IMG/VR virus record: IMGVR_UViG_3300046463_000302
Source of the DNA: an uncultured virus (IMG/VR IMGVR_UViG_3300046463_000302)
Taxonomy: Duplodnaviria; Heunggongvirae; Uroviricota; Caudoviricetes
DNA: 64,000 bases
Strand: one strand, 5' to 3'
Shown here: piece by piece, positions 1 through 49,036 of the stretch
Position numbering within the stretch: position 1 is the first letter of the stretch
How the letters are laid out: each line of letters begins with the position of its first letter
Notes under the pieces: generated by a model
The model's database searches: none
What the model was told of the DNA's origin: nothing
What the model saw: only the letters and a program-made list of their open reading frames with translations
Translations under genes and position numbers: made by a program

Positions 1-55
1 AGGTCTTGTAATGACGGACTAGAGGGAGCGCGTCGCCACAACGTTGGCAATCCAT
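1..55 (-). CDS. 5' end of a gene downstream of cro (truncated by window edge)
   Basis: Minus-strand ATG at 55 reads MDCQRCGDALPLVRHYKT.. off the edge. Confidence 0.35.
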   Translation of the reverse strand, partial: MDCQRCGDALPLVRHYKT

Positions 56-93
56 GGGAGCGCGCGGCTTTTTTGGAACACCGATTCCGCTTT

Positions 94-297
94 TCATGCC
101 GCGACCTGCTCAGAACTAGCCTTTTCCTTTTCAGCGATCAGCGCGGAGAAGGTTTTGAGGTTCACGGAATAGCCATCGTTGTTCACGATGCGCTGGATGG
201 TCCGACGGTTCACACCGGTGCGCCGCGCGATCTCGTTGAGTTGACGCTTGACCGACTGCTCCGCCAGCCAATCACGAAGCGTTTCAAATTCAGTCAT
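94..297 (-). CDS. Cro-like HTH regulator
   Basis: 67 aa, HTH (LNEIARRTGVNRRTIQRI), divergent from repressor. Confidence 0.8.
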   Translation of the reverse strand: MTEFETLRDWLAEQSVKRQLNEIARRTGVNRRTIQRIVNNDGYSVNLKTFSALIAEKEKASSEQVAA

Positions 298-332
298 GGC
301 TTCTCGCTGGGTGGTTCGTTGATGACCAACCC

Positions 333-374
333 ATTTTAGACGCGGACGTCTTGAAACGCAAGACGCAAATGTCT
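333..374 (-). promoter_or_regulatory. PR-like promoter with two AGAC-N6-GTCT operators (338-351, 361-374)
   Basis: Minus strand TTGCGT-17nt-TAAAAT overlapping two palindromic boxes. Confidence 0.75.
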
Positions 375-398
375 AGGAAACAAAAATAGAATCCAGTC

Positions 399-806
399 AT
401 GTCTAAAGCGCTCGAAATCCTCAGCTCGAACATCTCCAGCCTGATCGGCGAGGGGAAGCCATTCCGCAATGACGCGGACATGGGAGAGCGCACTGGCTTA
501 GGGCAGAGAAAGATTCACCGACTGAGAAATCAGGCCGGCGAACCGAAGATCGACAACCTCGACACTCTGTCTGAGCGCCTCCACGTGCCGATTCCAGCAC
601 TCCTCAGCCCCAACATGGACGTGGTTCAGGGCAGTCTGCCTACCCAGGTGGCCGACATCGTGCGGCGCATTTGTACGCTAGCGTTTAAAAATGCACTTGA
701 ACCGCACGATTTGATGCACCTTTCCAGCGCTGTTTCACTAATTGAGAAGTCGAAGGGGAACGTAATCTTGTCATCCGAAAGCAATAAACGCGGGACCGGC
801 ACCTAG
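399..806 (+). CDS. CI-like XRE repressor (phage A)
   Basis: N-terminal HTH (DADMGERTGLGQRKIHRL...PKIDNLDTLS), flanked by operator pairs. Confidence 0.75.
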   Translation: MSKALEILSSNISSLIGEGKPFRNDADMGERTGLGQRKIHRLRNQAGEPKIDNLDTLSERLHVPIPALLSPNMDVVQGSLPTQVADIVRRICTLAFKNALEPHDLMHLSSAVSLIEKSKGNVILSSESNKRGTGT

Positions 807-839
807 AAGCCACAGCCCGCACAGACCTGCGGGTGAATC

Positions 840-1073
840 ATGAGAGCAGCGACAGAGAGAAGGCACCTACGCCTCGTCGTGTCCAGTGCCGTCACCGTAG
901 AAATACCAGTCCCACCCCCACCGCCCCCCGCCTCCTCCACGATCCTTATTGAGATCGGCCGCGAAGGAGCGCTTCAAAAACTCGAGATCAATGTTCGCCA
1001 GGAAGATGCCATCCAGGCGCTGCACGGACTCGTCATGGCGCACATGCGCGCGCTCGACTTGCTGACCCACTGA
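840..1073 (+). CDS. hypothetical protein in immunity region
   Basis: 77-aa ORF co-oriented with repressor. Confidence 0.5.
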   Translation: MRAATERRHLRLVVSSAVTVEIPVPPPPPPASSTILIEIGREGALQKLEINVRQEDAIQALHGLVMAHMRALDLLTH

Positions 1074-1116
1074 AATTCGCGGGCTGAGACATGCCCGCAA
1101 AAAATCGCTCAGTTTT

Positions 1117-1158
1117 AGACATTCTCGTCTTGACAGTTAAGACGGGCGTGTCTAAGAT
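1117..1158 (+). promoter_or_regulatory. PL-like promoter with two AGAC-N6-GTCT operators (1117-1130, 1140-1153)
   Basis: TTGACA(1130-1135)-17nt-TAAGAT(1153-1158). Confidence 0.8.
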
Positions 1159-1200
1159 TCTACTCACAGCAGCACACAAACAAACCCTGTGAGGTCATCC

Positions 1201-1359
1201 ATGAAAGCGCCCTTTGTCTCGAAGCTGCACCACGAGATCAGCCTGTTCGCCACGAAGATGCTTGAGCTTGTGTGCATCAACCCGTGGGAAGTGAACCCGC
1301 TGTTGCGCGTGTGGAAGATCTCTCGCGAGACCGATTACAGCCGTATCACGATTCAGTGA
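1201..1359 (+). CDS. small early protein
   Basis: GAGG RBS, 52 aa MKAPFVSKLHHEIS.., first gene after promoter. Confidence 0.55.
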   Translation: MKAPFVSKLHHEISLFATKMLELVCINPWEVNPLLRVWKISRETDYSRITIQ

Positions 1360-1366
1360 GGAAGCC

Positions 1367-1666
1367 ATGAGCGCGATTCCGCTAGTCATCAACAAGACCA
1401 TGAAGTACGGCGACTGGATGTTCGACCGCGAGCTTGATGCGCTCGATCGCTCAGCCCTGATCGCCTACGACCGCCGCGAGCGCATCGAGCGCGAAGTCAG
1501 CTTTGACGACCTGCTCGAAGAGTGCGTCGAAATGACCGGACCGCAGAAGGAAGCGTTTATGCAAGCGCTGGCGCGCGGCAGCAACGCGGACGTGCACACG
1601 CTTTACTGCCTGCTCGACCAGGTGAAAGAGCAGATCGTGAAGCGCCGCCTTGCAGGAGGTGTGTGA
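1367..1666 (+). CDS. hypothetical early protein
   Basis: GAGGA RBS, coupled to next ORF. Confidence 0.65.
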   Translation: MSAIPLVINKTMKYGDWMFDRELDALDRSALIAYDRRERIEREVSFDDLLEECVEMTGPQKEAFMQALARGSNADVHTLYCLLDQVKEQIVKRRLAGGV

Positions 1667-1863
1667 TGGAAGTCCGCCTCGAAAAGATCATCGAAGCCAT
1701 GAGCGTTCTGAACGTGACGGCCGACCACCTGCTGAAGGCGCCGATTGACGATCAGGTTGCAGGTTTTCTTGCCGCGCAGTGCATCAAGTCGGCTGCGGAT
1801 CTGCGTGCGGCGATGCACATGTCAGAGCTTCAGAACGCACAAATTACGGGAGCACTGCAATGA
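1666..1863 (+). CDS. hypothetical early protein
   Basis: GGAGG RBS, TGATG overlap. Confidence 0.6.
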   Translation: MEVRLEKIIEAMSVLNVTADHLLKAPIDDQVAGFLAAQCIKSAADLRAAMHMSELQNAQITGALQ

Positions 1864-1939
1864 GCGGCATCGCCATTCTCTTCCTGATCTGGGGCTTCCT
1901 CGCACTGTGCTGCTGCGCGTTTGTGCGGGGTGCAGCGTG

Positions 1940-2128
1940 ATGACGACCCTCTACCGCCGTCGCCAGTACCGCGCCCGGCGCGATCAGCCGACGCTGGCTG
2001 ACCTGGTCGACGCTGACGTGATCATCGGCGCGCAGTGCTTCGTCGCCGGCTTCTTTTTCTTCGCGCTGCTGATGCTCGTGTTTTTCGGCGAGCGCTTTCT
2101 TGCGATCTTCGGAGGCTTACATGGTTAA
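1940..2128 (+). CDS. small membrane protein
   Basis: C-terminal hydrophobic segment, operon coupling. Confidence 0.5.
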   Translation: MTTLYRRRQYRARRDQPTLADLVDADVIIGAQCFVAGFFFFALLMLVFFGERFLAIFGGLHG

Positions 2129-2354
2129 GAACCTCGACCTGCGCCACGTGCGCACCGGCGTAAAGCTCTCGCGCGCCGAACTGGTGGACTCGGAATACCA
2201 GGCGCTGTGCGCCCGCACTGAACGGCGTCAGGAGGCTGCAAAGGCTGCTCTGGTTCGTCGCGGCGTGGAGCCGCGGGTGCGGATCAGTAGTGCATGGGTG
2301 CCGTCGTACATCGCAAAGCACTTCAACCACTGCGCTGTGCGAGGTCTCGCGTGA
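2121..2354 (+). CDS. hypothetical early protein
   Basis: GGAGG RBS, coupled overlaps. Confidence 0.6.
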   Translation: MVKNLDLRHVRTGVKLSRAELVDSEYQALCARTERRQEAAKAALVRRGVEPRVRISSAWVPSYIAKHFNHCAVRGLA

Positions 2355-2497
2355 TCCGCCGCTTATCCGACTACCTCGACGAACGTCCGGTCCTCGCCAT
2401 GATCCTCGGCACGCTAATGGCGTGTCTGATTCTCTACTTCGCGACGCCTTCGCTGTTTGAGCGTGCGGAACAACCGGTGCACCGGAGTGCGACGTGA
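2351..2497 (+). CDS. small membrane protein
   Basis: GAGG RBS, GTGA overlaps at both ends, one TM segment. Confidence 0.5.
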   Translation: MIRRLSDYLDERPVLAMILGTLMACLILYFATPSLFERAEQPVHRSAT

Positions 2498-3306
2498 TCC
2501 ACAACTATCTGAACATCGACGAGTACCACGCGATGCCAGAGGTATCGAAGTCGCAGCTCGACACGCTCGACCTGTCGCCGGCGATCTTCTATGCGCGCCA
2601 TCGCGATCCGAACCGGCCGGCGCCGGTGACGAAGTCGGGCCAGCTCGAAGGCAATCTCGCGCACTGCGCCGTGCTGGAGCCGGATGAATTCGAGTCGCGC
2701 TACGTCATCGGCCCGTCGGTCAACCGCAATACGAAGGTCTGGAAAGAGTTCGTCGAAGCGAATCCGAACCGCGTGGCAATCCAGCATGACCAGTACGAGG
2801 CAGCCACGCGTCAGGCGGTGTCGGTGCGCGCGCTGCCGGAGATCGGCGAAGCGCTGGCTAATGGGAAGGCTGAAGTGTCGGCCTTCTGGACTGACGAAGA
2901 AACGGGCGTCAAGTGCCGCTGCCGGCCTGACTGGGTGAACGACTGCGGCGAAGCTGGCGTGATCCTGCTCGACCTCAAGACCTACAGCAGCGCGAGCCCG
3001 CACGAGTTCCGCAAACAGGTCGCCCGCAAGCGGTACGACGTGCAGGCCGCGTTCTATAGCGATGGCTACGCAGCAGCCAGCGGCCGCCCCGTTCTCGGCT
3101 TCGTGTTCGTCGCTGTGGAAACCGAAGACCCCTCCGCCGCCAACGCTTTCATGCTCGACGAGGAAAGCCTTGAAGCCGGCCGCCAGAAGTACTGCAAGAA
3201 CCTGCGCACGTATGCCGAGTGCGAGCGCACCAACACGTGGCCTGGGTATTCGACGGGCATCGACATTATCCGCTTGCCCTCCTGGGCTCTCATCACTGAG
3301 GAATAA
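2494..3306 (+). CDS. RecE/exonuclease VIII-like PD-(D/E)XK nuclease
   Basis: CRCRPDW...DLKT...YDVQAAFY motifs, upstream of RecT. Confidence 0.9.
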   Translation: MIHNYLNIDEYHAMPEVSKSQLDTLDLSPAIFYARHRDPNRPAPVTKSGQLEGNLAHCAVLEPDEFESRYVIGPSVNRNTKVWKEFVEANPNRVAIQHDQYEAATRQAVSVRALPEIGEALANGKAEVSAFWTDEETGVKCRCRPDWVNDCGEAGVILLDLKTYSSASPHEFRKQVARKRYDVQAAFYSDGYAAASGRPVLGFVFVAVETEDPSAANAFMLDEESLEAGRQKYCKNLRTYAECERTNTWPGYSTGIDIIRLPSWALITEE

Positions 3307-3308
3307 CC

Positions 3309-4364
3309 GTGGCACAACAGACAACCAACCTCGCGAACCTGAAGCAGACCTCGAAGATGGTCGCGAAAGAAGCTGGGATCGGCAACGTGAAGTCGTTCTT
3401 CGAGTCGCAGAAGTCGACGCTCGCCGCGGTGTTGCCGCGCCACGTGTCGCCCGATCGGATGCTCAAGATTGCGCTCGGCGCGCTGCGCACGACCCCGAAG
3501 CTCATGGCATGCACGGTCGAATCGCTCATGGGTGCAGTCGTCCAGTGCTCGCAACTCGGCCTTGAGCCGAACACACCGCTCGGTCACGCCTACCTGATCC
3601 CATTCGAGAAGCGCAAGAAACAGGGTAACGAATGGGTCACGGTCGCCACCGAAGTGCAGATCGTGATCGGCTACAAGGGGTTGATCGACCTCGCGCGCCG
3701 CTCGGGCCAGGTCGTCAGCATCGCCGCGCATGCAGTCTGCGCGAACGACCACTTTGAGTACTCGTATGGCCTTGATGAGCGTCTTGAGCACCGTCCGGCA
3801 ATGAACAACCGCGGCAACGTGATCGCGTTCTACGCGGTGGCGAAACTGGTTGGCGGCGGTCATGCGTTCGAGATCATGAGCGCGGAGCAGGTCAACGAGA
3901 TCCGCAACGCCAGCCAGAACTACAAGTCGGCGCGCGACAAGGCCGCGTCTGTATGGGGCCAGCATTACGAGGAAATGGGCCGCAAGACGGTGTTGCGCCG
4001 CCTGTTCAAGTACCTGCCGGTGAGCATCGAACTGGCGTCTGCTGCGGCGCTCGATGAGGTTGGCGCTGCCGGTCGTTCGCAGGCACTCGACACGGTGCTG
4101 GAGGGCGACTACATCACGCCGAGCGAAACGGATGACGACGACGGCCACGTCGACCAGTCCACCGGCGAGATCACGGACCAGCGCCAGCAACAGGCGGATG
4201 CGATCGTCCTCGCTTACGGCGACTTGCTCGCGCAGATGCAGAAGGCCGATGACGTCGACACGCTGTCGATGGTGCTCGACAGCGGGCGCGATCTTCCGCA
4301 GGCCGAGCTCGTGAAGTTGCAGCAGGCCTACGACGACCGTCGCGAAATCCTGCTCGGCGCCTAA
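3309..4364 (+). CDS. recT: RecT ssDNA annealing protein (copy 1)
   Basis: QLGLEPNTPLGHAYLIPF, IGYKGLIDLARRSG, EMGRKTVLRRLFKYLP. Confidence 0.95.
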   Translation: MAQQTTNLANLKQTSKMVAKEAGIGNVKSFFESQKSTLAAVLPRHVSPDRMLKIALGALRTTPKLMACTVESLMGAVVQCSQLGLEPNTPLGHAYLIPFEKRKKQGNEWVTVATEVQIVIGYKGLIDLARRSGQVVSIAAHAVCANDHFEYSYGLDERLEHRPAMNNRGNVIAFYAVAKLVGGGHAFEIMSAEQVNEIRNASQNYKSARDKAASVWGQHYEEMGRKTVLRRLFKYLPVSIELASAAALDEVGAAGRSQALDTVLEGDYITPSETDDDDGHVDQSTGEITDQRQQQADAIVLAYGDLLAQMQKADDVDTLSMVLDSGRDLPQAELVKLQQAYDDRREILLGA

Positions 4365-4387
4365 CCCTTCCTCACCCCGGAGAAACC

Positions 4388-4969
4388 ATGTTTACCGTCA
4401 GCAATCAACTCTGCAAGATCGTATCCGTGACCAACGTGTCGGAGAAGCACGGCAAGGAACGCGTACCCGCCCTTTCCATCGGTCTCTATCTCGTCGGCTC
4501 GGGTTCGATCCTCGACCAGTTCGACAGTGCGCTGCGTCCGATGCTCTATCGCAAGCCGCAACCGACGCCCGGCGGTCTGCCGCTCGAATACGACGACAAC
4601 GAGCTGACTGAGCTGCGCTTCCCGTTCATGCGGAATTTGGCTTGGGACCGCAAATACGCCGGGTTCATGCTCCGCATCCGGATTGGGGCAACCGGCGCCG
4701 ATGATGTGCTGCTCACGGAATGTGGCCTGAAAGACATCCGCTTCGTGGCGCAGGAAGGCGGTTCTGTCGGTGTTGCTTTCAAGGTCACAGCGCATCCTAA
4801 AGACGAGATCGACCACGGCAAGGTCGCGACGCGCCTGCAGCAGGAAATCTTCATCGACCTGACGCCGCCGGACCACATGCCGACCCTGTTCGACAGCGAG
4901 CCGCAGGACGATGAGCGTGATCCCTTCGAAGGCAGCGACCTCGCGCAGGACGAGACGCGCATCCAGTAA
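4388..4969 (+). CDS. conserved hypothetical phage protein
   Basis: 193 aa, GGAG RBS, typical codon usage. Confidence 0.7.
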   Translation: MFTVSNQLCKIVSVTNVSEKHGKERVPALSIGLYLVGSGSILDQFDSALRPMLYRKPQPTPGGLPLEYDDNELTELRFPFMRNLAWDRKYAGFMLRIRIGATGADDVLLTECGLKDIRFVAQEGGSVGVAFKVTAHPKDEIDHGKVATRLQQEIFIDLTPPDHMPTLFDSEPQDDERDPFEGSDLAQDETRIQ

Positions 4970-5002
4970 CCCCCGAACCGCGCAGACGGCGCGGCGTGCT
5001 TA

Positions 5003-5029
5003 GGGCGGCTAGGTCAGCGCCCGTTTTTT
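5003..5029 (+). terminator. putative intrinsic terminator
   Basis: GGGCG..CGCCC stem followed by T run. Confidence 0.4.
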
Positions 5030-5059
5030 ACAACTGTTCGGCTATGCCGGCGAGGGAAT

Positions 5060-6085
5060 ATGAGCAACTGGATCGATCAATGCCACTTCGGTGATTGCCG
5101 CGACACCATGCGCGCGATGATCGCCGACGGCGTAAAGGTGCAGACGATCGTCACATCGCCGCCGTATTGGGGCTTGCGCGACTATGGCGTCGACGGCCAG
5201 ATCGGGCACGAGCCGACGCTGCGCGAATTCATCGACACGCTTACGGGCGTATTTGAACTGTGCCGCGAGCTGCTCGCCGACGACGGTACCGCATGGGTGA
5301 ATATGGGCGACGCGTACGCGAACGACAGCAAATGGGGCGGATCAACTGGCGGAAAGCACGTGGCAGCGCTTCATGGAGACAGCGGGATCGGCCGCGCCAA
5401 GCGCTATACCGGTCTGAAGGCCAAAGACTTGATGGGCCAGCCGTGGCGCCTCGCGTTCGCACTGCAAGACGCCGGCTGGTATCTCCGGCAGGACATCGTA
5501 TGGCACAAGCCGAACCCGATGCCGGAATCAGTACAGGACCGTTGCACCAAGGCGCACGAGTACATCTTCCTGCTCACGAAGAGCTCGAGCTACTACTGCG
5601 ATATGGCGTCGATCCGTGTGCCTGCCAGTCTCGAGACGAAGATCCAGTCTTTCGACACGATGAACTTCAAAGCGCGCGACAAGTACAAGACGGCCGGCAA
5701 CGTAAACCCGCCGAAGGGCGCCGTTGCATACGCCGACGGCGACGAGCGACACAGAACGAAGGCAGGACTGCTTGCCTATGCTCAGAAGACGCGCGCAGAC
5801 GGCGAGGTCGATCTTTCGACGGCGAACCGCCGAAGCGTCTGGACGATCGCAACTGAAGCATACCCGGGCGCCCACTTCGCCACCTTCCCCGAAGCACTCG
5901 TCGAACCATGCGTGCTTGCGGGCTCGCGGGCCGGCGACGTTGTGTTCGATCCGTTTTTCGGTAGCGGCACCACCGGGCAGGTCGCCGCGCGGCTCGGCCG
6001 AAAGTTCATCGGATGCGAATTGAACCCGGCATACGAAGCCCTGCAACGCGATCGGATCCGCGAGCGTGGCTTTGAGTTCGCCTGA
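5060..6085 (+). CDS. orphan beta-class amino-DNA methyltransferase (probably N4-cytosine)
   Basis: TSPPY near N-terminus, HFATFP and DPFFGSGTT near C-terminus. Confidence 0.92.
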   Translation: MSNWIDQCHFGDCRDTMRAMIADGVKVQTIVTSPPYWGLRDYGVDGQIGHEPTLREFIDTLTGVFELCRELLADDGTAWVNMGDAYANDSKWGGSTGGKHVAALHGDSGIGRAKRYTGLKAKDLMGQPWRLAFALQDAGWYLRQDIVWHKPNPMPESVQDRCTKAHEYIFLLTKSSSYYCDMASIRVPASLETKIQSFDTMNFKARDKYKTAGNVNPPKGAVAYADGDERHRTKAGLLAYAQKTRADGEVDLSTANRRSVWTIATEAYPGAHFATFPEALVEPCVLAGSRAGDVVFDPFFGSGTTGQVAARLGRKFIGCELNPAYEALQRDRIRERGFEFA

Positions 6086-6144
6086 CCCACCCGCAAGGAA
6101 CCCGACATGAATACCGATACAGACGCAGTGAAGGAGATGGAATC

Positions 6145-6408
6145 GTGAGCGCAGTTTATGTTGACCGCTTCAGCGCTGGCCTTGATGACCTGACGCGCAA
6201 GCAACAGGGCGATCACATCGCCGTCCTGCGGGTGCTCAACAAGACGGGCCGCTTCAGTTGCTTCGAGGCATCCGAGAATCAGACGATCGCTCGCACGATG
6301 GATTTCATTTTGCATAGCGATCTCGTCCAGACAACCGACAACGGCTATCCATGGACCGGCGTGAAGCTGACAGATGCCGGCCGTGCCGCTTTGGAGGTGA
6401 CCCCATGA
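6145..6408 (+). CDS. hypothetical (possible winged helix) protein
   Basis: AAGGAG RBS, ends LTDAGRAAL. Confidence 0.6.
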   Translation: MSAVYVDRFSAGLDDLTRKQQGDHIAVLRVLNKTGRFSCFEASENQTIARTMDFILHSDLVQTTDNGYPWTGVKLTDAGRAALEVTP

Positions 6409-6983
6409 CCACCACTACCAAGATCGCTGGAGAGGCTATGACGGACGAACAGATTCGCAAGAGCATGACGGGCGAACAGATCCGACTTGAGCGCAAGCTG
6501 ACTTGCGAAGCAATCGACGGCGCGATGGCCTTCGGTTATCAGAACACCAATCCGCCGCCGAGCGACGATCACTGGCTCGCGCCGTACTGGAAGATCGGCC
6601 GCAAGCAAGCCGAGATGGAATGCGCCCTGCTTGCAAGCAAGCCTGCCGTGGCGCCGCCCGTTGACGAGAAAGCCGAATGGCAGGCATTTTTAGATTGGGC
6701 ATGGAAGAAAGAAGGTGAGGCTATCGGCCGGATGGAAGGTCGGGATGCGGTTTGGGCCGGATGGCATGCGCGCGCCATGCTCGCCGCAGCCACCGCTCCC
6801 GCGCAATCGTGCGGTGACGCCGAGCAAGCAGACGAGGCGGTGACGGACGACGCTCGCCGATGGAAGTGGCTGAAGATGGAATCGACCGTAGGAGAGCAGC
6901 AAAAGATCATGGGCACCCCTTGGGGGCAATGGGACCAGTTTGCTGATGACGCTATCACCGCCCGCGCAAAGGACAGCAAATGA
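6405..6983 (+). CDS. mosaic hypothetical phage protein
   Basis: GGAGG RBS, ATGA overlaps. Confidence 0.65.
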   Translation: MTTTTKIAGEAMTDEQIRKSMTGEQIRLERKLTCEAIDGAMAFGYQNTNPPPSDDHWLAPYWKIGRKQAEMECALLASKPAVAPPVDEKAEWQAFLDWAWKKEGEAIGRMEGRDAVWAGWHARAMLAAATAPAQSCGDAEQADEAVTDDARRWKWLKMESTVGEQQKIMGTPWGQWDQFADDAITARAKDSK

Positions 6984-7771
6984 ACACGACAAATCACACT
7001 TCGCCGAGCGGTGAGGAACTGAAGCCGTGCCCGTTCTGTGGCGGCACCGATCTATTCGTTGAGCGGCTTGACTACACCGCTTGCTTCGTTCAATGCGACA
7101 GCAGCGTCGGCGAACATGAAGCTTGCTGTATGCGTGGACCGGTCGGCATGCAGGACGACGACGACGAGGAAACTCCCGGCAACGCCGCAGCCATTCGCGC
7201 CTGGAATCGCCGCGCCGCACTCACCGCCGAAAAGGTGGCGGCGGAGCCGGTGGCGATTGTCCGTGACAATCCTGACGACATTGGAACGATCATCGAGGCA
7301 ACGCGCCCACTCGAAGTCGGGACGCAACTCTATCTCGCCGCCCCACAACAGCCCGCGCAATCTGCCGAGCAGGACGAGCGGGCGCAGTTCAGGGCACAGG
7401 TTTGCTGCGAAGTTGGCCTATCGACAGAACGAAGCGACGAAGAAATACTGAATGCGCTGGTGGCGCAACGGGTGCAGCTTCGTCGCCAAGCCCGCGCCGC
7501 GGAGCCGGTGACTTTGGAGCAAGTGAAAGCGCTCGAAGTGGCTGTTTGTCACGGACAAAGCGGCGAAGCGCTTCGACTGCTGCATCACATGCGGAATGCG
7601 CTCGCCGCCCCGCAACCAGCACAGACACAGTTGGCGCTGACGGACACTGATCTGGAAAAACTGTATTGGACGGCTATGAATAACGCTGCCGATATTCTCC
7701 GGTACATGGACGAAGCCCGCGCCATTCTCGCTGCGCAACCTGTGAGCGGACAGACGGAGGGCAATCAGTGA
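6980..7771 (+). CDS. Lar-family restriction alleviation-like protein with mosaic C-terminus
   Basis: ELKPCPFCG...CDS..C...AIRAWNRR. Confidence 0.75.
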   Translation: MNTTNHTSPSGEELKPCPFCGGTDLFVERLDYTACFVQCDSSVGEHEACCMRGPVGMQDDDDEETPGNAAAIRAWNRRAALTAEKVAAEPVAIVRDNPDDIGTIIEATRPLEVGTQLYLAAPQQPAQSAEQDERAQFRAQVCCEVGLSTERSDEEILNALVAQRVQLRRQARAAEPVTLEQVKALEVAVCHGQSGEALRLLHHMRNALAAPQPAQTQLALTDTDLEKLYWTAMNNAADILRYMDEARAILAAQPVSGQTEGNQ

Positions 7772-8115
7772 CCGTCTACGTCGACGATATGAAGGCGAAG
7801 TACGGCCGCATGGTCATGTGTCACATGCTGGCCGATACCGACGACGAGCTACACGCCATGGCCGCCACCATCGGCGTGGCGCGTCGCTGGTGGCAGAGCC
7901 CGGAAAAGACGAGCGGAAGTCACTACGACATTGCGCTGTCCAAGCGGGCTATCGCCGTGGCGGCCGGCGCCGTCGAAATCACATGGAAGCAGGCAGGCGC
8001 GATGAACGCCCGCCGACGAGTCACAGGCGAGTTAGGCAACCCGGCTGATGCTGTCGAGTGGCTACAGACTTACATGGAACAGCGCCGTGCGGCGCGAGCT
8101 AAGGAGACAGCCTGA
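7768..8115 (+). CDS. DUF4031-family protein
   Basis: MTVYVDD..MCHMLADTDDELHAMA..HYDI..KRAIAV..GA. Confidence 0.85.
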   Translation: MTVYVDDMKAKYGRMVMCHMLADTDDELHAMAATIGVARRWWQSPEKTSGSHYDIALSKRAIAVAAGAVEITWKQAGAMNARRRVTGELGNPADAVEWLQTYMEQRRAARAKETA

Positions 8116-8267
8116 TGCAATCAGAAGCAGCATTAAACCTGAAGCTGGTCGCGGCCATGGCAGAGAAGGCCGCAGCCAAGGCCGAGCGCGGCGCATTCTG
8201 GCCCGGCGAACTGGCTGAAGCCGTGCAGCAGATGCAGAAGTGGCTTGCGGAGATCAAGACCCGCTGA
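8115..8267 (+). CDS. small hypothetical protein
   Basis: AAGGAG RBS, TGATG overlap, 50 aa. Confidence 0.55.
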   Translation: MQSEAALNLKLVAAMAEKAAAKAERGAFWPGELAEAVQQMQKWLAEIKTR

Positions 8268-8270
8268 AGA

Positions 8271-8300
8271 GTGCGGTATGGTGCGGGACGGTGCTGTATG
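8271..8300. repeat. 3 x 10-bp tandem motif GTGCGGTATG (dispersed family)
   Basis: GTGCGGTATG GTGCGGGACG GTGCTGTATG directly before TerL start. Confidence 0.7.
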
Positions 8301-9881
8301 ATTACCACCGTTCCCATTTCATTACCGCGCATGACGCCGTTCGACGAGCTACGCGCAAACCTCTCCGATCCAATGTGGAGGCTTTGCAACCTGTACAAGA
8401 TCATCACGAAAGGGTCCGACGATCCTGATGATCCGGGGCTGGTCGTCACTTTCAAGCCGAACCGTGCGCAACGCCGGTTGCTGAAACGGCTGTACTACCG
8501 AAACATCATCCTCAAGGCCCGCCAGCTAGGCTTTACCACGCTGATCGCGATTCTCTATCTCGACCACGCGCTATTCAACGCCAACGTACGCTGCGGGATC
8601 ATCGCGCAGGACCGCGAGACGGCTGAATCCATCTTCCGCGACAAGGTCAAGTTCGCCTACGACAACCTTCCCGAGTCATTGCGCGCGGCGATGCCGCTGA
8701 AGAAGGACAGCGCAACGGAACTGCTGTTCGCGCACAACAACAGCAGCATGCGCGTGGCAACGTCCATGCGGGGCGGCACGATCCACCGCCTGCACATTTC
8801 CGAGTTCGGGAAAATCTGCGCGAAGTATCCGGAGAAGGCCAAGGAAGTCATGACGGGCTCGATTCCGGCCGTGCCGCTCGACGGCATTGTGACGATCGAA
8901 TCGACGGCTGAAGGGCGGGAAGGGGAGTTCTACGAGCTATCGCAACGCGCCGAGGCCCAGCTGAAGGCCGGCAAGATCTTGACCAAGCGCGACTACCGCT
9001 TCCACTTCTTCCCCTGGTGGGGGCAAGACGAATACCGCATGGACCCGGCGGGCGTGCCGCTGGGGCCGAAGGATATCGAGTACTTCACCGAGATCGAGGC
9101 CAAGATCCGCCGCGCGCTCGACCCGGAACAGAAGGCATGGTACGTCGCCACGCGCGACGCCGACTTCCCCAACAATCCAGAGCGTATGTGGCAAGAATAC
9201 CCATCGACGCCCGAAGAGGCGTTTCAAAAGTCGTCCGAGGGCTGCTACTTCACCCAGCAGATCGCCGCGGCGCGCAAGGCCAAGCGAATCACCAAGGTTC
9301 CGCACGTCGATGGTGTTCCGGTCCACACGATATGGGATATCGGCAATAGCGACGGCACCGCGATATGGCTGTTCCAGATCATCGGCATGCAGTACAGGTT
9401 CATCGGCTTCCTCGAGGGCTGGGGCGAGACGTATAGCTACTTCGTGCGCGAGCTACACAAACTGCCGTATGTCTACGGCAAGCACCACCTTCCGCACGAC
9501 GCCGGCCATGAGCGCATGCGCGAGGACGAGGACACGGCCATGACGCCCGCAGCATCGCTCGAGCGACTTGGCCTGCGCAACGTCGATATCGTGCCGCGCA
9601 TCCCTGAGAAGCAGATGAGCATTCAGGCCGCCCGCGACTGGTTCGGCAACTGCTGGTTCGACGAGGAAGCGTGCAAGGACGGGATCATCCACCTCGAGAG
9701 CTACAAGCGTAAATGGAACACGGCGACCGGCGCATGGACGTCCGAGCCGCTTCACGACGAGCATAGCGAAGCTGCTGACGCGTATCAGCAGGGCGCGATT
9801 GTGTATCAACTCAGGCCGCCGAGGCAGAACAACGGCGAATCACGCAACAAACCACGCAAATCTAGCTGGAGAACGGTATGA
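8298..9881 (+). CDS. terL: terminase large subunit
   Basis: ILKARQLGFTT Walker A, LHISE Walker B, TIESTA, WDIG nuclease motif; start codon uncertain. Confidence 0.95.
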   Translation: MITTVPISLPRMTPFDELRANLSDPMWRLCNLYKIITKGSDDPDDPGLVVTFKPNRAQRRLLKRLYYRNIILKARQLGFTTLIAILYLDHALFNANVRCGIIAQDRETAESIFRDKVKFAYDNLPESLRAAMPLKKDSATELLFAHNNSSMRVATSMRGGTIHRLHISEFGKICAKYPEKAKEVMTGSIPAVPLDGIVTIESTAEGREGEFYELSQRAEAQLKAGKILTKRDYRFHFFPWWGQDEYRMDPAGVPLGPKDIEYFTEIEAKIRRALDPEQKAWYVATRDADFPNNPERMWQEYPSTPEEAFQKSSEGCYFTQQIAAARKAKRITKVPHVDGVPVHTIWDIGNSDGTAIWLFQIIGMQYRFIGFLEGWGETYSYFVRELHKLPYVYGKHHLPHDAGHERMREDEDTAMTPAASLERLGLRNVDIVPRIPEKQMSIQAARDWFGNCWFDEEACKDGIIHLESYKRKWNTATGAWTSEPLHDEHSEAADAYQQGAIVYQLRPPRQNNGESRNKPRKSSWRTV

Positions 9882-10039
9882 AAGCCGTGCTTTTCATCGG
9901 GCTAGTGCTCATTGCATACCGCATGGGATGGGAGAGCGCGCACAAGACCGTTGCAAGCGAGTGCAGGCGACTCGGATCGTTTTACGTCGGAAGCAGCACA
10001 TTCAAATGTATTGAAATCACACAGGAGCATAACAAGTGA
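9878..10039 (+). CDS. small membrane-anchored protein
   Basis: 53 aa MKAVLFIGLVLIAY..ECRRLGSFYVG..FKC, overlaps both neighbours by 4 nt. Confidence 0.6.
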   Translation: MKAVLFIGLVLIAYRMGWESAHKTVASECRRLGSFYVGSSTFKCIEITQEHNK

Positions 10040-10464
10040 CCACGCAACGCCCATTTCTCGACCTGACCCGCAATGCATTCGTCCGCCACCTGGGCGAGTT
10101 CACGCTATACGGCACATGGTGCAACGCTGCCGACGACCAAACCGAGCCGTGCCTTGTCATCCTGCCGCGTTTCCGCCGTATTGGTGCGAAACCATGCTGT
10201 ATAGCACTGTCGTCCGCATTCAAATACAATGACGCGCGTTATGCGGTACTAAAATCAGACCACTTTCTACGGGAAATGGGCATGGAGCCGGGAATGACTG
10301 CCACGCGGACGCTGGCAACCCTGATTCATGACCACCTTCAAGACCTGATCGAAATGCCGCCCGAGCCGACACAGGCAATTGTCGTTGGTGAGGCAAACGT
10401 GGACATGGGCGACGGGCAGCGCCGCAAGGTCGAGATCCTGGAACACGCCCAAGTTCCGCACTGA
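10036..10464 (+). CDS. conserved hypothetical protein upstream of portal
   Basis: AGGAG RBS, 142 aa. Confidence 0.7.
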   Translation: MTTQRPFLDLTRNAFVRHLGEFTLYGTWCNAADDQTEPCLVILPRFRRIGAKPCCIALSSAFKYNDARYAVLKSDHFLREMGMEPGMTATRTLATLIHDHLQDLIEMPPEPTQAIVVGEANVDMGDGQRRKVEILEHAQVPH

Positions 10465-10484
10465 GCAACGACAAGGAGCGGTAA

Positions 10485-12725
10485 ATGTTCGAGAACGAGC
10501 GAGTCAACAGGGACAATCCGGTCGATCGGCTACAAACGGCCGTGGCGGAAGAGGCCGCGGCGCCTGAGCACCCGCTCGATTCCGAGGCAATGAGCCAGTT
10601 GCACGAATCTTTGCTGGCTTTCTACCACCAGGAACTAGACCGGCAGGGCGAGAACCGCTTTCAGCAGGCCGTCGACGAGGACTATTACGACAATATCCAG
10701 TGGACGGAAGAGGATGCACAGGTTTTGAAGGACCGCGGGCAGGCGCCGCTGGTCTACAACGTAATTTCGACGTCGGTGAACTGGATCATCGGCAGTGAGA
10801 AGCGCAACCGGACCGACTTCAATATCCTGCCGCGAAAGAAAGAGGACGGGCGGGCCGCCGAACTCAAGACCGCGCTCCTTAAATACCTTTCCGACGTCAA
10901 CCGCACGCCGTTCAATCGTTCGCGGGCATTCGAAGATACCGTCAAGGTCGGAATTGGCTGGATCGAGGACGGCGCGCAGGACGATGACGACGGCGAAATG
11001 CTGTATTCGCGCTACGAGTCGTGGCGCAACATGCTTTGGGACAGCGCCGCGACTGAGTTGGACCTGTCGGACGCCCGCTATGTGTTCCGTTCCAAGTGGA
11101 CCGACGTCGATATCGCGCTGACCTACTTCAAGGGCCGCGACGATCTAATCAAGGAATCGGTCACGCATGGCGCAAAGTACGGCATTGGCAGCGATTCCGA
11201 CGGCGACGACGCGATGGATTCCGCCGAGTATGAGCGTCAGGAGCACAGCTACGCACGCGCGCTCACCACTAACACGCGGGACCGCGTCCGCCTGATCGAA
11301 TGCTGGTACCGCACGCCCGAGCAGGTAAAGCGCATCAAGGGCGGACCGCGCCACGGCGAAGTATTCGACGAGAACGACCCGCACCACCAGGCAGCTATCA
11401 CCGTCGGCAACGGCGTGCTGATCGACCGCATCATGATGCGCGTACGCTGCGCGATCTTCACGACGAGCGGCATGCTTTGGGAAGGCCCGACACCTTACCG
11501 CCATAACCGCTTTCCGTTCACGCCCATTTGGGGCTATCGCCGTGGCCGCGACGGCCTGCCGTACGGCGTGATTCGCTGGATGCGCGACATTCAGGACGAT
11601 ATCAACAAGCGGGCATCGAAGGCGCAATACATTCTCGCGACCAATAAAACGGTCATGGACGAAGGCGCTGTCGAAGATATCGAGAAGTTCCGGGAGGAAG
11701 TGTCCCGCCCCGACGCGGTCATTCAGAAGAAGCCGGGCAAGATGCTCGAGATCAACGTGGACCGCGATCTAGCGCCGGCACACCTGGATCTCATGAGCCG
11801 CAACATTCAGATGATCCAGCAGATTGGCGGGGTCACTGATGAACTCATGGGCAAGTCGACAAGCGCCGTGTCGGGCGTTGCGATCCAGCGCCGGCAGGAC
11901 CAAGGCAGCGTCGCGACGAACAAGTTCTTCGACAATTTACGCCTCGCGGTGCAGATCCAGGGCGAGACGCAGCTATCGTTGATCGAACAGTGGTTCACCG
12001 ACGAAAAAGACTTCCGCATCACGAACAAGCGCGGCGTTGCGTCATACATGACGGTCAACGATGGACTGCCCGAGAACGACATTACGCGCACGAAGGCCGA
12101 CTTCATCGTAGACGAGGCGACGTGGAATGCGTCGATGCGTCAGGCGCAGGCCGAGCAGCTTGGCGAGTTGATGGTCAAGATGCCGCCGCAAGTCGCACTG
12201 GTCATGCTCGACCTGTTCGTCGAACTGATGGACATTCCGAACCGCGAGGCGATCGTGGCGCGCATTCGCCAGGTCAACGGCATGAGCGATCCGGATGCAA
12301 CCGAGCCGAGCCCGGAACAGCAGGCCGCGCAACAGGCGCAGGCCGAAGCGCAGCAGATGCAGCGCAATATGGCGCAGGCAGAATTGGACGAAAAGCAGGC
12401 CAAGGCCGACAAACTCAAGGCCGAAGCCGATCAAGTTCGCCGGCTGACCGTGCAGGAGAACGTTCAATCGACGTTGCTCGCCACGCAGGCCGCGCAAATC
12501 GCAATCGTCGCGCCGGCTACGGCAAGCGTGGCAGACGCGATCCTTCACGAATCTGGCTGGAATGGCCCCGGCGGTGGCCTTCCTTTGCTCGAGCAGCCGC
12601 CGACGCAGCAACCGCAGCAGCAACCCCAGCCAGGTAATGGCGGACAGCCTATGGTGCCGAATGGTGCGGCACTAAATGGAATGCCGCCGCCTCAAATGCA
12701 ACCCATGCAAGGACAACCACAATGA
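10485..12725 (+). CDS. portal protein (P22/N4-like podovirus type)
   Basis: YYDNIQW..RGQAPLVYN, PYGVIRWMRDIQDDINKR, SGVAIQRRQDQG, Q-rich tail. Confidence 0.93.
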   Translation: MFENERVNRDNPVDRLQTAVAEEAAAPEHPLDSEAMSQLHESLLAFYHQELDRQGENRFQQAVDEDYYDNIQWTEEDAQVLKDRGQAPLVYNVISTSVNWIIGSEKRNRTDFNILPRKKEDGRAAELKTALLKYLSDVNRTPFNRSRAFEDTVKVGIGWIEDGAQDDDDGEMLYSRYESWRNMLWDSAATELDLSDARYVFRSKWTDVDIALTYFKGRDDLIKESVTHGAKYGIGSDSDGDDAMDSAEYERQEHSYARALTTNTRDRVRLIECWYRTPEQVKRIKGGPRHGEVFDENDPHHQAAITVGNGVLIDRIMMRVRCAIFTTSGMLWEGPTPYRHNRFPFTPIWGYRRGRDGLPYGVIRWMRDIQDDINKRASKAQYILATNKTVMDEGAVEDIEKFREEVSRPDAVIQKKPGKMLEINVDRDLAPAHLDLMSRNIQMIQQIGGVTDELMGKSTSAVSGVAIQRRQDQGSVATNKFFDNLRLAVQIQGETQLSLIEQWFTDEKDFRITNKRGVASYMTVNDGLPENDITRTKADFIVDEATWNASMRQAQAEQLGELMVKMPPQVALVMLDLFVELMDIPNREAIVARIRQVNGMSDPDATEPSPEQQAAQQAQAEAQQMQRNMAQAELDEKQAKADKLKAEADQVRRLTVQENVQSTLLATQAAQIAIVAPATASVADAILHESGWNGPGGGLPLLEQPPTQQPQQQPQPGNGGQPMVPNGAALNGMPPPQMQPMQGQPQ

Positions 12726-13705
12726 ATCTGAACGACGGACTGACTGAAGAAGAACGCGCCGCGCTGGCGCTCGACGACAACGGAGACGAGGTCAATGGCG
12801 AAGGTGCTGGTAGTGGTGCTGGGGACGGGAGCGGCGCGGGCGGCGATGCTGGCGCAGGCGCTTCCGGAGACGGAGCCGGCGATGCTGCTGGAGCCGGTGC
12901 TGACGCGGCTGGATCGGATGCCGCCGGTAGTGCGGGCGATGCTGGCAGCGGCGCCGGAAGTGGAGCGGGCGCAGCCGACGGAGCCGGTGCAGCAGGAGAC
13001 GGTAATGGTGCTGGCGATGGCGCAGGAGCGGGCGAAGGTGCAGGCGAGGGCGCAGATGCAGAAGGCCAACCGCGTCCCGTTCTCGTCGCCGAAGCGCCGG
13101 CTGATGCCGAGGCGCGGCTAAAGCAGATCGCCGACAAGCGCGCCGAGCTGCGCAAGCAGTACGACGACGGCGATATCACGTTCGAAGAGTACGACGGCGC
13201 CAAGGATTCGCTCAATGCCGAAGAACGCAAGATCGAGCGCGCCGTGGACAAGGCAACGCTCGCTGCGGAGTTGACGCAGCAGCAGGCGAAGAACGAATGG
13301 GAGACGACCGTTTCCGGCTTTCTGGCCGCGAACGATTCGTACAAGAAGAACCCTGTTCTCTATCGTGCGCTCGACAGCGAGGTAAAGCGCGTCGCCAGCG
13401 AAGAGTCCGCCAAGAATTTGAGCTTCCGTCAGATTCTGGAGAAGGCGCATGAGGCAGTATCGAGCGCATTCGGCGTACCTGCGGCAAAGCCGGCTGACCA
13501 GAAGGCCGCCGATGCAGCGAACAAAGGCCGCAAGCAACCGGAGTTGCCGCCCACGCTGCGCAAGGTGCCGGCCGCCGAGTCCGCCGACACAAGCGGCAAC
13601 AAGTACGCCGCGCTCGATCGGCTGTTGGAAACCGATCCGATCGCGTACGAGAACGCGCTGGCGAAGATGACCAAGGCCGAGCGCGACGCCTACTGCGCGC
13701 AATAA
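12722..13705 (+). CDS. head scaffolding protein
   Basis: Acidic Gly/Ala-rich N-terminus, coiled coil, position between portal and capsid. Confidence 0.75.
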   Translation: MNLNDGLTEEERAALALDDNGDEVNGEGAGSGAGDGSGAGGDAGAGASGDGAGDAAGAGADAAGSDAAGSAGDAGSGAGSGAGAADGAGAAGDGNGAGDGAGAGEGAGEGADAEGQPRPVLVAEAPADAEARLKQIADKRAELRKQYDDGDITFEEYDGAKDSLNAEERKIERAVDKATLAAELTQQQAKNEWETTVSGFLAANDSYKKNPVLYRALDSEVKRVASEESAKNLSFRQILEKAHEAVSSAFGVPAAKPADQKAADAANKGRKQPELPPTLRKVPAAESADTSGNKYAALDRLLETDPIAYENALAKMTKAERDAYCAQ

Positions 13706-13727
13706 GTGAATAACCAAGGGACCGACT

Positions 13728-13919
13728 GTGCTGAAAATTGACCTGAAGCCGAACGAGAGCGTCACGATCGGAGACGATATCGTCGTGACGCTCGAGGAAA
13801 AATCCGGCCAAATCGCGCGCCTATCGTTTCAGGCGCCGAAGTCGGTCCCCATCAAGCGCGTGCAGCCGGCGACGCCCGCCAATGTCGCGGCATCGTATGG
13901 ACTTGGCGTAAAGCCGTAA
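13728..13919 (+). CDS. CsrA/RsmA-like carbon storage regulator homolog
   Basis: MLKIDLKPNESVTIGDDIVVT..ARLSFQAPKSVPIKR matches the CsrA pattern. Confidence 0.8.
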   Translation: MLKIDLKPNESVTIGDDIVVTLEEKSGQIARLSFQAPKSVPIKRVQPATPANVAASYGLGVKP

Positions 13920-14047
13920 GAAGTTGCGTAAAGCTGGAAACATTTTGCGTGTGATGGTTGCAATTTAGCACCGACACAGCGAAAATCCGACCAACGTAGC
14001 GCAGGAGTGCGACGTGAATTCGACAATCCATTCATGGAGCACTCCGT

Positions 14048-15148
14048 ATGTCTCAAACAGTCGTCGCCTTTGGCGACGTAAAAGCCCAAAAGAAGTGGTC
14101 CGCTAACCTGGCGGTCGACGTCGTCAAGAAGTCGTACTTCGAAGGCAAGTTCATCGGCACCGATGACAACGCGATCATCCAGCGCAAGACCGATCTCGAA
14201 AGCGATTCGGGCGACCGCATCTCGTTCGACCTGTGCGTGCAGATGCGCGGCGAGCCGACCTACGGCGACAAGCGCCTGGAAGGCAAGGAAGAACAGTTGA
14301 AGTTCTTCACGGACGAGGTTGCAATCGACCAGGTCCGTAAGTCCGCATCGGCCGGCGGCCGCATGACCCGCAAGCGCACGTCGCACGATCTCCGTGCCGT
14401 GGCGCGCGACCGCCTTGGCGACTACTTCAGCCGCCTGTTCGACGAACTGGTATTCATGTACCTGTCGGGCGCACGCGGCGTGAATGCCGACTTCATCGAA
14501 GGCCCGGCCTACACCGGCTTCGCCAACAACCCGTTCAACGCTCCGGACGTCGACCACTTGCTGTACGGCGGCGCAGCTACGAGCAAGGCATCGCTCGCAG
14601 CGACCGACACCATGAGCCGCATCGTTATCGAGCGCGCGAACGTGAAGGCTTCGATGATGCAGGCCATGAATCCGGACACGGCAAACATGGTTCCGGCATC
14701 GGTCGACGGTGGCAACGATTCGTACGTGTGTCTCATGTCGGTGTTCCAGGAGCACTCGATGCGTACGGCTGACGCGGCTGGCTGGCTGGAAATCCAGAAG
14801 GCCGCGGCGGCTGCTGAAGGTCGCAACAACCCGATCTTCAAGGGCGGCTTGGGCATGGTCGGCAACACGATCCTGCACTCGCATCGCAACGTGATCCGCT
14901 TCAGCGACTACGGCGCAGGCGCAAACCTGCCCGCAGCACGCGCGCTGTACATGGGCCGTCAGGCTGCTGTCGTCGCATACGGTTCGAAGGGCGGTCTGCG
15001 CTACGACTGGCAGGAAGAAACGAAGGACTACGGCAATGAGCCGACGGTTGCTTCGGGCTTCATCGGCGGCATCAAAAAGACGCAGTTCAACGGCAAGGAC
15101 TTCGGCGTTATCGCGATCGACACGTACGCGAAGGACCCGAACTCGTAA
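14048..15148 (+). CDS. major capsid protein (N4-gp56 family)
   Basis: TDLESDSGDRISFDL, LEGKEEQL, IDQVR, NPIFKGGLG, DFGVIAID. Confidence 0.93.
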   Translation: MSQTVVAFGDVKAQKKWSANLAVDVVKKSYFEGKFIGTDDNAIIQRKTDLESDSGDRISFDLCVQMRGEPTYGDKRLEGKEEQLKFFTDEVAIDQVRKSASAGGRMTRKRTSHDLRAVARDRLGDYFSRLFDELVFMYLSGARGVNADFIEGPAYTGFANNPFNAPDVDHLLYGGAATSKASLAATDTMSRIVIERANVKASMMQAMNPDTANMVPASVDGGNDSYVCLMSVFQEHSMRTADAAGWLEIQKAAAAAEGRNNPIFKGGLGMVGNTILHSHRNVIRFSDYGAGANLPAARALYMGRQAAVVAYGSKGGLRYDWQEETKDYGNEPTVASGFIGGIKKTQFNGKDFGVIAIDTYAKDPNS

Positions 15149-43833: not shown

Positions 43834-44036
43834 TGTGGATAACCCCGGCGCGAGTCCGCATATTGTTAACATAAAAGTCTCTATCGTTAGGGTGTCCACC
43901 AGACACCGATACCGGCATCAACGGTTCCTGGTGGACACCTTTAGAACGGTCGTTCGGTATCTGTCAGATACGTGTCTGTGTGACACCTATTCAGACTGGT
44001 TCCCATGAGACACCGATTGCGTCAGATTGTGGATAA
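43834..44036. promoter_or_regulatory. putative plasmid-type replication origin
   Basis: DnaA boxes TGTGGATAA at 43834 and 44028, AT-rich 43861-43884, five GGTGTC-N5-GACACC-like palindromes. Confidence 0.75.
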
Positions 44037-44598
44037 GTCTCTCCCGCATGGCTTTCGGGAGTTTATCCATATTGTCCAGCAGGTTTTGAATATTCAATTG
44101 CATGGACTGATCGTGAAAGTTGTTGATATTCACGGTTAGGTTTTCAATCTGTACGATCTTGGCGCCGGCAAAGTCTCCCGTCATGAGGACGTTTTTCAGG
44201 TCTGCGACCGCGCCCTTCACTCCATCAGGCACGTAATCCCATGATGCCGCTGCTACGGGCCTGCCGTGTGTGTCGGATATGTCCACCTTTTCCCTCAGTG
44301 TGTAGACGTTGTTCCTGCCCTTCTGGTCGCGCGTGATATAGCCGTAATCCTCGAGCGTCTTAAGTGCACGAATGATTTGGCTTTTCGAAATGCCCGATTT
44401 TTCCACAATCGTCGGCATCGACGGGAAAGCCATGCCCGACTTGAAATTCGTGTGCGCCTTGATGACCATATAGACGGTCACTGCGTACGGCCCCATCTTC
44501 GCCACATCGCCGTTTTCTATCATCGAACGGAAAATGTGGAACCAGGTAGTTTCCGCCTTGAACAGTTCAAACTGTTCCTTTTCGTCGCTGGCGGTCAT
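43987..44598 (-). CDS. winged-HTH replication initiator (plasmid Rep-like)
   Basis: VYMVIKAHTN..AFPSMPTIVEKSGISKSQIIRALKTLEDYGYI; downstream of par genes, adjacent to iteron-like boxes. Confidence 0.75.
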   Translation of the reverse strand: MTASDEKEQFELFKAETTWFHIFRSMIENGDVAKMGPYAVTVYMVIKAHTNFKSGMAFPSMPTIVEKSGISKSQIIRALKTLEDYGYITRDQKGRNNVYTLREKVDISDTHGRPVAAASWDYVPDGVKGAVADLKNVLMTGDFAGAKIVQIENLTVNINNFHDQSMQLNIQNLLDNMDKLPKAMRERLIHNLTQSVSHGNQSE

Positions 44599-44601
44599 AC
44601 C

Positions 44602-45030
44602 CTACTCCAAGCCGAATTGCTTCTTCAGCCGTGCCACTTCGCGCCGCGTGCCGTCGACCATGATATCGGTCTTGGTCAGGCCGAACAGCCGGCACAGATC
44701 GTCGATATCGTCGAGCAGGCTCACCGGCATGCGCGCGTTGGTCTGCACCGTGGGCTCCTTGCGCGGGCGCAGCGCCCGGATTGCCTGCATATCTAGCTGC
44801 ACGCCCCTGTGCTGCTGCATGGCAGTCTGCAGGGCATCGTTAGGCGCGGGCGGGCTCTCGATCGCCGCCTCAAAGCGCTCGGATTCCTGCTGCGTCAGCT
44901 TGACCGCTTCGCCGGCCGGCGCCGGCTGTGAGGTTTCAGTGGCCGGCGGCGCTTTCGCAATGACGTCCTGCGCGCGCTCGAGGTCCGCGAAAACATCGCG
45001 CCCGCGGGGCGTTCCCATTCCCTTGCTCAT
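44602..45030 (-). CDS. ParG-like RHH centromere-binding protein
   Basis: Disordered N-terminus, C-terminal TVQTNARMPVSLLDDIDDLC..TKTDIM; coupled to ParA. Confidence 0.7.
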   Translation of the reverse strand: MSKGMGTPRGRDVFADLERAQDVIAKAPPATETSQPAPAGEAVKLTQQESERFEAAIESPPAPNDALQTAMQQHRGVQLDMQAIRALRPRKEPTVQTNARMPVSLLDDIDDLCRLFGLTKTDIMVDGTRREVARLKKQFGLE

Positions 45031-48965: not shown

Positions 48966-48976
48966 TCCCTTACTTT

Positions 48977-49010: not shown

Positions 49011-49036
49011 GCGGTTAGCAATTGAATCGCGAGAGC

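Follow-up and report, generated by a model that had tools for sequence, protein, structure and literature searches.

A contig that runs from a lambdoid early arm into a Bcep22-like podophage genome is probably an assembly chimera, joined at a 144-nucleotide cassette identical in both phages

Repeat misjoins in short-read metagenome assembly are known by a contig end that overlaps an internal site by exactly the k-mer length k, by a step in depth and by the presence of both parental paths. Here we analyse the IMG/VR record IMGVR_UViG_3300046463_000302 (G000), a contig of 68,586 nucleotides (nt) from an uncultured virus, of which bases 1–64,000 constitute the window studied, and in which the early arm of a lambdoid phage runs into the genome of a podophage. 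The closest described relatives of the first part are Burkholderia phage KL4 (Kelquatrovirus) and, of the second, the Bcep22-like phages of the genera Gervaisevirus (Ralstonia phages Gervaise, UAM5 and GP4) and Lessievirus (Bcep22, BcepIL02 and JC1). For the Bcep22-like phages, the available parts of PMC9144972 describe a genome of ~60 kb, widely separated TerS and TerL terminase genes, a DarB-like protein, CsrA and PAPS reductase, and report that JC1 integrates and that other Bcep22-like lysogens are unstable. According to the accessible text of PMC10834534, the exo-xis genes of lambdoid phages are mosaic, with Ea22 variants sharing segments but having unrelated variable domains. An earlier note made from the sequence had proposed that two phages are joined in G000 through shared accessory DNA at 5–8 kb, either as a cointegrate or as an assembly chimera; the joining of two phages in that interval is borne out by our analysis and, of the two options, the chimera is favoured.

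The contig has the form of a lasso in which a 7,240-nt stem (1–7240, + strand) enters a 61,219-nt loop. In a self-comparison, the last 158 nt of the contig (68429–68586) matched 7210–7367 at 156 of 158 positions and its end was repeated exactly over at most 127 nt (68460–68586, equal to 7241–7367); the lengths add up accordingly, with 7,240 + 61,346 = 68,586 and 61,346 = 61,219 + 127. Where contigs end at a node of the assembly graph, they overlap by precisely k. The overlap in G000 equals the top k of the metagenome workflow of the Joint Genome Institute (JGI), which the available part of its description (10.1101/2020.09.30.320929) gives as metaSPAdes with k of 33, 55, 77, 99 and 127 on 2x150 reads, and from the JGI/IMG label of the G000 proteins we infer that this workflow produced the contig. 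Aligning the two halves to their relatives, as the earlier note had advised, located the breakpoint to a shared core of 144 nt (7241–7384, + strand) that is identical in both phages. To its left lies an early arm that comes from another, lambdoid temperate phage and of which position 1 is merely the contig end, and to its right (7385–64000, + strand) the body of a 61,219-nt Bcep22-like circle that goes on to 68586 and closes on 7368. The core falls within a chimeric Lar-like gene encoding 263 amino acids (aa) (6980–7771, + strand; protein P0004), composed of a lambdoid N-half, the shared core and a podophage C-half. The early arm had been said to run directly into TerL: the continuation on one strand is real, but sequence comparison places the junction inside this Lar-like gene and not at TerL, and assigns 7385–8267, including the DUF4031 gene (7768–8115) and the interval 8115–8267, to the podophage, because UAM5, the loci L035 and L060 and other TerL loci have TerS or DUF4031 upstream of TerL. 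Of the second copy of the accessory segment that the earlier note had suggested looking for beyond 64 kb, we found linker motifs (described below) together with the terminal 158 nt, and no second methyltransferase, DUF4031 or integrase gene. GC content and palindrome avoidance did not separate the stem from the circle, and the repeat families D1–D20, except D13, resemble repeats that arise by chance or from coding sequence.

Each of the two parental paths through the repeat is also on record by itself. A lambdoid locus (L006) is 100% identical to the contig over 6958–7384 and then diverges, completing a 187-aa Lar-like gene (protein P0003) that occurs in this form on nine contigs and as a two-residue variant on five. 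Downstream of this gene in L006 are a J-domain gene, a gene for an Xis-like helix-turn-helix (HTH) protein and a convergent tyrosine integrase gene (PF00589), that is, the xis/int ending that the earlier note had expected of a lambdoid arm. In metagenome run X1 there is a loose end at 7384, which matches the lambdoid continuation at 29 of 30 letters. On the podophage side, a search with the 211-aa open reading frame cut at the end of G000 retrieved P0001, a protein of 345 aa that corresponds to that frame plus the C-half of 6980–7771 and is found on two contigs, the longest of which, at 61,346 nt, is known via its protein record. No relative with both modules as one stable genome, which the earlier note had named as a refutation, was found: ExoVIII was present in none of 79 other TerL loci (~40 with at least 5 kb of upstream sequence) and TerL lay downstream in none of 30 RecT loci (21 with at least 4 kb), 12 of which had an integrase match. 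Among 90 loci found with the methyltransferase or a 192-aa cassette gene, TerL, portal or DUF4031 occurred only in a second record, G001. Five podophage records likewise gave no match to ExoVIII, in a search run without a positive control, and a scan with the 48-aa core, covering 21 of 64 parts of the metagenome contigs, yielded at least three loci, which are distant.

Depth was taken from rhizosphere metagenomes of one year (24 runs, available as contigs, of which six were examined), which possibly represent one campaign and possibly include the source sample; each value is one mean per contig, summed over organisms, and not a copy number. In run X2, a 38,859-nt contig of the circle body, starting at 7357, had a depth of 29.6 and the flank at 63.5–66.8 kb a depth of 29.7, with the pieces of the circle's own end at 31.4, 29.0, 31.7 and 28.8 and the shared core at 44.6. 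The listed stem pieces were at 4.1–10.8 and the methyltransferase piece at 18.8, and the stem-specific pieces at 4–8 compare with 29.6 for the circle. Across runs X1–X4, the ratio of end to flank depth was 0.86, 1.02, ~1.3 and 1.0 (the X3 flank being rounded to 5.0 from pieces of 4.3–6.1). The core was deeper than either partner, at 45.3/24.4, 44.6/29.7, 18.9/4.3–6.1 and 15.1/9.4 relative to the circle flank, which corresponds to an extra core depth of 0.86, 0.5, ~2.8 and 0.6 relative to the circle. The depth of the circle is explained by its own end, and that of the other phage changes independently of it. Runs X8 and X12 covered parts of the stem and left 8000–15000 almost bare; since contigs may have holes and both runs also lacked 1–1000, neither was used as evidence.

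What is directly observed is the lasso shape, the continuation of each parent and the pattern of depth, and we consider it likely that G000 is an assembly chimera of a lambdoid early arm and a complete 61,219-nt Bcep22-like genome, joined at the identical 144 nt; the fusion is thus likely not a real feature. In the mechanism we propose, the core would act as a repeat in a de Bruijn assembly with a top k of 127 and 150-nt reads. With the lambdoid phage at low depth, k-mers leading into the core would survive and those leading out to the xis/int side would be lost, which would leave the podophage loop as the sole remaining exit for the stem, and the path would halt on meeting the same 127-mer again. 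G000 would differ from the usual misjoins in that its repeat is a cassette that two phages have exchanged; for this reason the misjoin can arise again in other samples and pass for a real recombinant.

Several points weigh against the chimera. The record G001 (60,725 nt) corresponds to 5875–66599 of G000 with two differences and has the same join, and the chimeric protein P0004 is on three contigs against two for the closed-circle form, although these three may include one record filed twice. The exact cassettes of the stem at 6140–6955 were present, among the loci examined, only in G001, and their proteins are on 6–7 contigs. G001 also lacks 66600–68459 and ends inside a 19-nt microhomology (18 of 19 positions) between 66586–66604 of G000, where the circle's array begins, and linker A at 6104–6122, which the chimera leaves unexplained. 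In addition, the artefact mechanism rests on expected and modelled assembler behaviour, and the depth evidence is limited by balanced flow, by per-contig means and by what is possibly a single campaign. In a toy model based on such expected behaviour, which requires 28 consecutive read-supported 128-mers for every entry to and exit from the core and ignores gap closing, entry-only linkage arose in 15–27% of trials at a lambdoid depth of 4–15, with barely any difference when the lambdoid exit was split into two alleles. Recurrence of the join would be expected because the model gives entry-only linkage at this rate; the observed three of five is, however, on the high side under the model (P = 0.04–0.10).

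Unlikely in our judgement, a real cointegrate carried by a fraction of the population would have arisen when a circular phage-plasmid crossed, at the shared stretch of 144–175 nt, into a resident prophage of the lambdoid type, by RecET or RecA, with the contig representing one of the two junctions. This would fit the recurrence of the join in G001 and on three contigs, the conserved depth flow and the fact that both phages encode RecT and an exonuclease, Rad52-like recombinases being described in the accessible part of PMC3945230 as using short homology. A single crossover is also expected to leave a flanking direct repeat, which is present, yet an assembly lasso gives the same. We favour the chimera over the cointegrate because the repeat at the contig end stops at exactly 127 nt even though L006 is homologous over 144, because the stand-alone circle is on record, because the depth at the circle's end equals that of the circle, and because no reciprocal junction back into the recipient was found, the contig stopping at the repeat. 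Likewise, the reciprocal hybrid protein (podophage N-half and lambdoid C-half, ~269 aa) was not among 20 and 18 protein matches, an absence from the database that is weak evidence. Nor are the two partners equally deep: the X2 depths of stem and circle allow at most a minority of joined copies, roughly 14–27% of loop copies, which extra free copies could mask, and depth merely caps the cointegrate because a cointegrate would balance the flow too. A wider version, to which we give similarly little credence, is that the linker array is a cassette-exchange platform shared by unrelated temperate phages within a single group of soil hosts, its 11 near-invariant linkers serving as RecET landing sites for the in-frame swapping of protein domains, that a Bcep22-like phage-plasmid without integrase plugged into this lambdoid pool, and that the join is a real crossover intermediate of its insertion into a prophage through the array.

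More improbable still is a podophage variant that swapped its own block at 66.6–68.4 kb for lambdoid cassettes (~6.1–7.2 kb) by a double crossover at linkers, the remaining stem being added by the assembler. The end of G001 at 66599, inside the linker A microhomology and without the circle's own block, speaks for such a variant, but contigs of X1–X4 cross 66599 unbroken, the circle's own block is at full depth, and G001 starts at 5875, to the left of linker A, with its last 6,725 nt identical to G000 and no jump. One stable hybrid genome with both early modules in the order of G000 is least credible of all, even though two records have this order in common: the close isolated Gervaisevirus relatives of the loop are 55–62 kb (the 25 best of 128 records), with headful packaging likely from the available text of PMC9144972, depth is uneven and no relative has both modules. 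A stable hybrid is already largely refuted by the depth of the circle's own end and by the 61,346-nt closed form on record.

In the chimera that we prefer, the core itself likely records a real and recent exchange of a cassette between phages of the two types. It lies within a linker/cassette array (6079–7750, + strand) with linkers at ~6085, 6408, 6622, 6793, 6821, 6963, 7210, 7336, 7610 and 7718, and a second linker set is found in the loop (66804–68586 of G000). Altogether 11 linkers of 22–55 nt average 85–97% identity across the loci that carry them, namely the stem and loop of G000, L006, L009, L033, L125–L135, L149 and L171, and they stand in a largely fixed order in 21 rows among those listed, which include some duplicates and of which two are the stem and the loop. 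Within a linker pair the spacing keeps the same remainder modulo 3, in 13/13, 13/13, 12/12 and 10/10 cases for the four pairs with the most data, with exceptions in A–B and F–G. With duplicate loci removed, 70 inserts in nine intervals fell into 61 unrelated types, three of the sharings being between stem and loop, in a count whose looser matching may have let in false linkers. Within genes, a conserved frame would be expected in any case; what is notable is that unrelated inserts stand between near-identical DNA linkers. As far as the accessible text of PMC10834534 goes, the array resembles the mosaic exo-xis genes (Ea22 variants) in its genomic position, shared segments and unrelated variable domains, and it is also like the recombinase-driven mosaicism of PMC3945230, as described in part, in which Rad52-like recombinases that act on short homology mediate the exchange. 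It differs from the Ea22 mosaics in having 11 near-invariant DNA linkers, many unrelated in-frame inserts and two unrelated phage types as carriers. The G000 proteins gave no Pfam match to Ead/Ea22, and a literature search of titles and abstract beginnings, mostly outside subscription journals, found no description of such a linker array.

The podophage probably imported a lambdoid array, because the linkers were not found in the examined DNA of the 79 other TerL loci, UAM5, Gervaise and KL4; one insert of the podophage array is in common with L006 and one with L135. Comparison at the sequence level indicates that the array reflects recent domain-level gene flow between the lambdoid pool and an unrelated podophage, and by analogy with Rad52-like recombinases the recombination at linkers may be driven by RecT. 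Named relatives of the Lar-like proteins come from Paraburkholderia, which suggests a host in Paraburkholderia.

The gene content of the stem is that of a lambdoid early arm, with a repressor/Cro switch and an exonuclease-recombinase pair; the xis/int genes are seen only in the near-identical relative L006 and not in G000. Switch 1 (94–806) consists of a putative Cro-like HTH gene (94–297, - strand), which gave a weak HTH match in a profile search, and a putative repressor gene (399–806, + strand), which has no family match and owes its assignment to its position, with operators at 337 and 360. The operator AGAC-N6-GTCT has four copies in G000 (337, 360, 1116 and 1139), all in the stem and none elsewhere in the contig. 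These are followed by genes for ExoVIII (RecE-like, DUF3799; 2494–3306, + strand; PHROG 412, PF12684), RecT (3309–4364, + strand; PHROG 148, PF03837) and an N6/N4 DNA methyltransferase (5060–6085, + strand; PF01555) with 100% protein identity in the lambdoid loci L170 and L171. Locus L005 is 99.8% identical to 1–4610 and extends leftward into CII, DUF1376 and DnaB-like helicase genes, and L006, which has an extra gene after RecT, matches the stem at 1860–4362 and 4388–6133 as well as at 6958–7384. KL4 is 78.7% identical to the stem over ExoVIII, RecT and methyltransferase, and both KL4 and the IMG/VR lambdoid records behind L005, L006 and L171 share its order of cro/repressor, small genes, ExoVIII, RecT, methyltransferase and accessory genes, followed in them by a convergent integrase; unlike the stem, KL4 has none of the 11 linkers, and the cassettes vary among close relatives. 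Strain variants of the stem include a 3-nt insertion at 6789 (6788–6789) in contigs of X1 and X2, contigs in three runs that skip the methyltransferase (5065–6079), and inserts at 1860–1866 in L004, L006 and L171. Just past the integrase of L006 (11631–12596, - strand) is a methyltransferase-like gene, judged by sequence motif alone.

The circle, at 61.2 kb, resembles Gervaisevirus and Lessievirus in size and in the distance between TerS and TerL, and shares with the Bcep22-like phages the order TerL-portal-CsrA-capsid, a DarB-like protein, PAPS reductase, a block of RecT, YqaJ and switch, and DUF4031 before TerL, so that the described traits of the group (genome size, TerS/TerL distance, DarB-like protein, CsrA and PAPS reductase) are all present. 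TerL (8298–9881, + strand) is given in its recorded 527-aa form starting at 8298, position 8271 falling within a dispersed 29-nt motif. DUF4031 (7768–8115, + strand; PF13223) is native to the podophage, stands in the same place in UAM5, and precedes TerL in 9 of the 79 other TerL loci, with TerS still further upstream in 8 of these nine. TerS (62537–63112, + strand; PF03592) is followed on the closed circle by ~6.4 kb of small genes before TerL, as in relatives; the order in the closed loop is TerS, small genes, HTH gene, Lar-like genes, DUF4031 and TerL, that in UAM5 TerS, 12 small genes including a DUF4031 match, and TerL, and that in L035 and L060 TerS, HTH gene and TerL. The DarB-like protein of 4,322 aa (27806–40774) has SLT, FtsK-gamma, methylase and helicase domains, and the block at 47937–51255 holds the podophage RecT, the YqaJ exonuclease (at 49037) and switch 2 (50177–50794, - strand, and 50905–51255, + strand; 53% and 51% identical to Gervaise). 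The earlier note was right in seeing two switches, two divergent RecT genes (32% identical over 233 aa) and two different exonucleases, ExoVIII at 2494 and YqaJ at 49037. A tail-fibre adaptor gene contains two 77-nt copies, 75% identical and 159 nt apart (18229–18464).

The circle differs from its Bcep22-like relatives in being 70–73% identical to them in DNA over aligned head genes (regional BLAST to Gervaisevirus and Lessievirus gave 68–73% over aligned parts only, which is not a whole-genome identity), in lacking an integrase, and in having a lambdoid-type linker array and a Rep-like HTH, RHH and ParA module (43987–45689, - strand) adjoining Rz, where Gervaise has a tyrosine integrase. G000 had no match to PF00589 or PF00239, with G002 and G008 as positives, and the site-specific recombinase expected in the group beside the lysis genes was thus not found. 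A second genome, G006 (L153; 62,070 nt), shares this ParA (78%) and RHH (50%) beside Rz and has no integrase match; the Rep of the circle, whose assignment as a Rep-like HTH has weak family support, had no match in the G006 DNA examined. The circle thus combines a full phage gene set with putative replication and partition genes and no integrase, and the Rep-like/RHH/ParA genes in the integrase place of two Bcep22-like genomes mark a candidate phage-plasmid subgroup, for which gene content suggests a plasmid lifestyle. The best match of TerL in PLSDB was below 60% identity, genome contigs scanned for the Rep protein yielded a single weak match, which is unrelated, and no host, and a literature search, mostly outside subscription journals, found no description of a Bcep22-like phage-plasmid. 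Relatives of ParA at ~50% identity are on four viral contigs of 83–216 kb (L154–L157). The 29-nt motif, possibly a regulator or partition site, has eight copies (8271, 12654, 17059, 20479, 37321, 48980, 54150 and 63729), all in the circle (8271–63757); its absence from the stem, where 0.95 copies are expected (P(0) = 0.39), is weak evidence alone. It also occurs in L035, L060 and UAM5, each of which has a copy immediately ahead of TerL, and in Gervaise, and was not found in G002 or KL4.

Overall, the fusion should be discounted, and G000, although rated 100% complete, likely includes 7.2 kb of another phage. The same join in a second record means that recurrence across assemblies of one community is no proof of a recombinant, and the linker array makes linker-guided shuffling testable. 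A plasmid lifestyle of this integrase-free, ParA-type circle would, if true, be an addition to the Bcep22-like group; the lysogens studied in that group, in the available parts of PMC9144972, integrate or are unstable.

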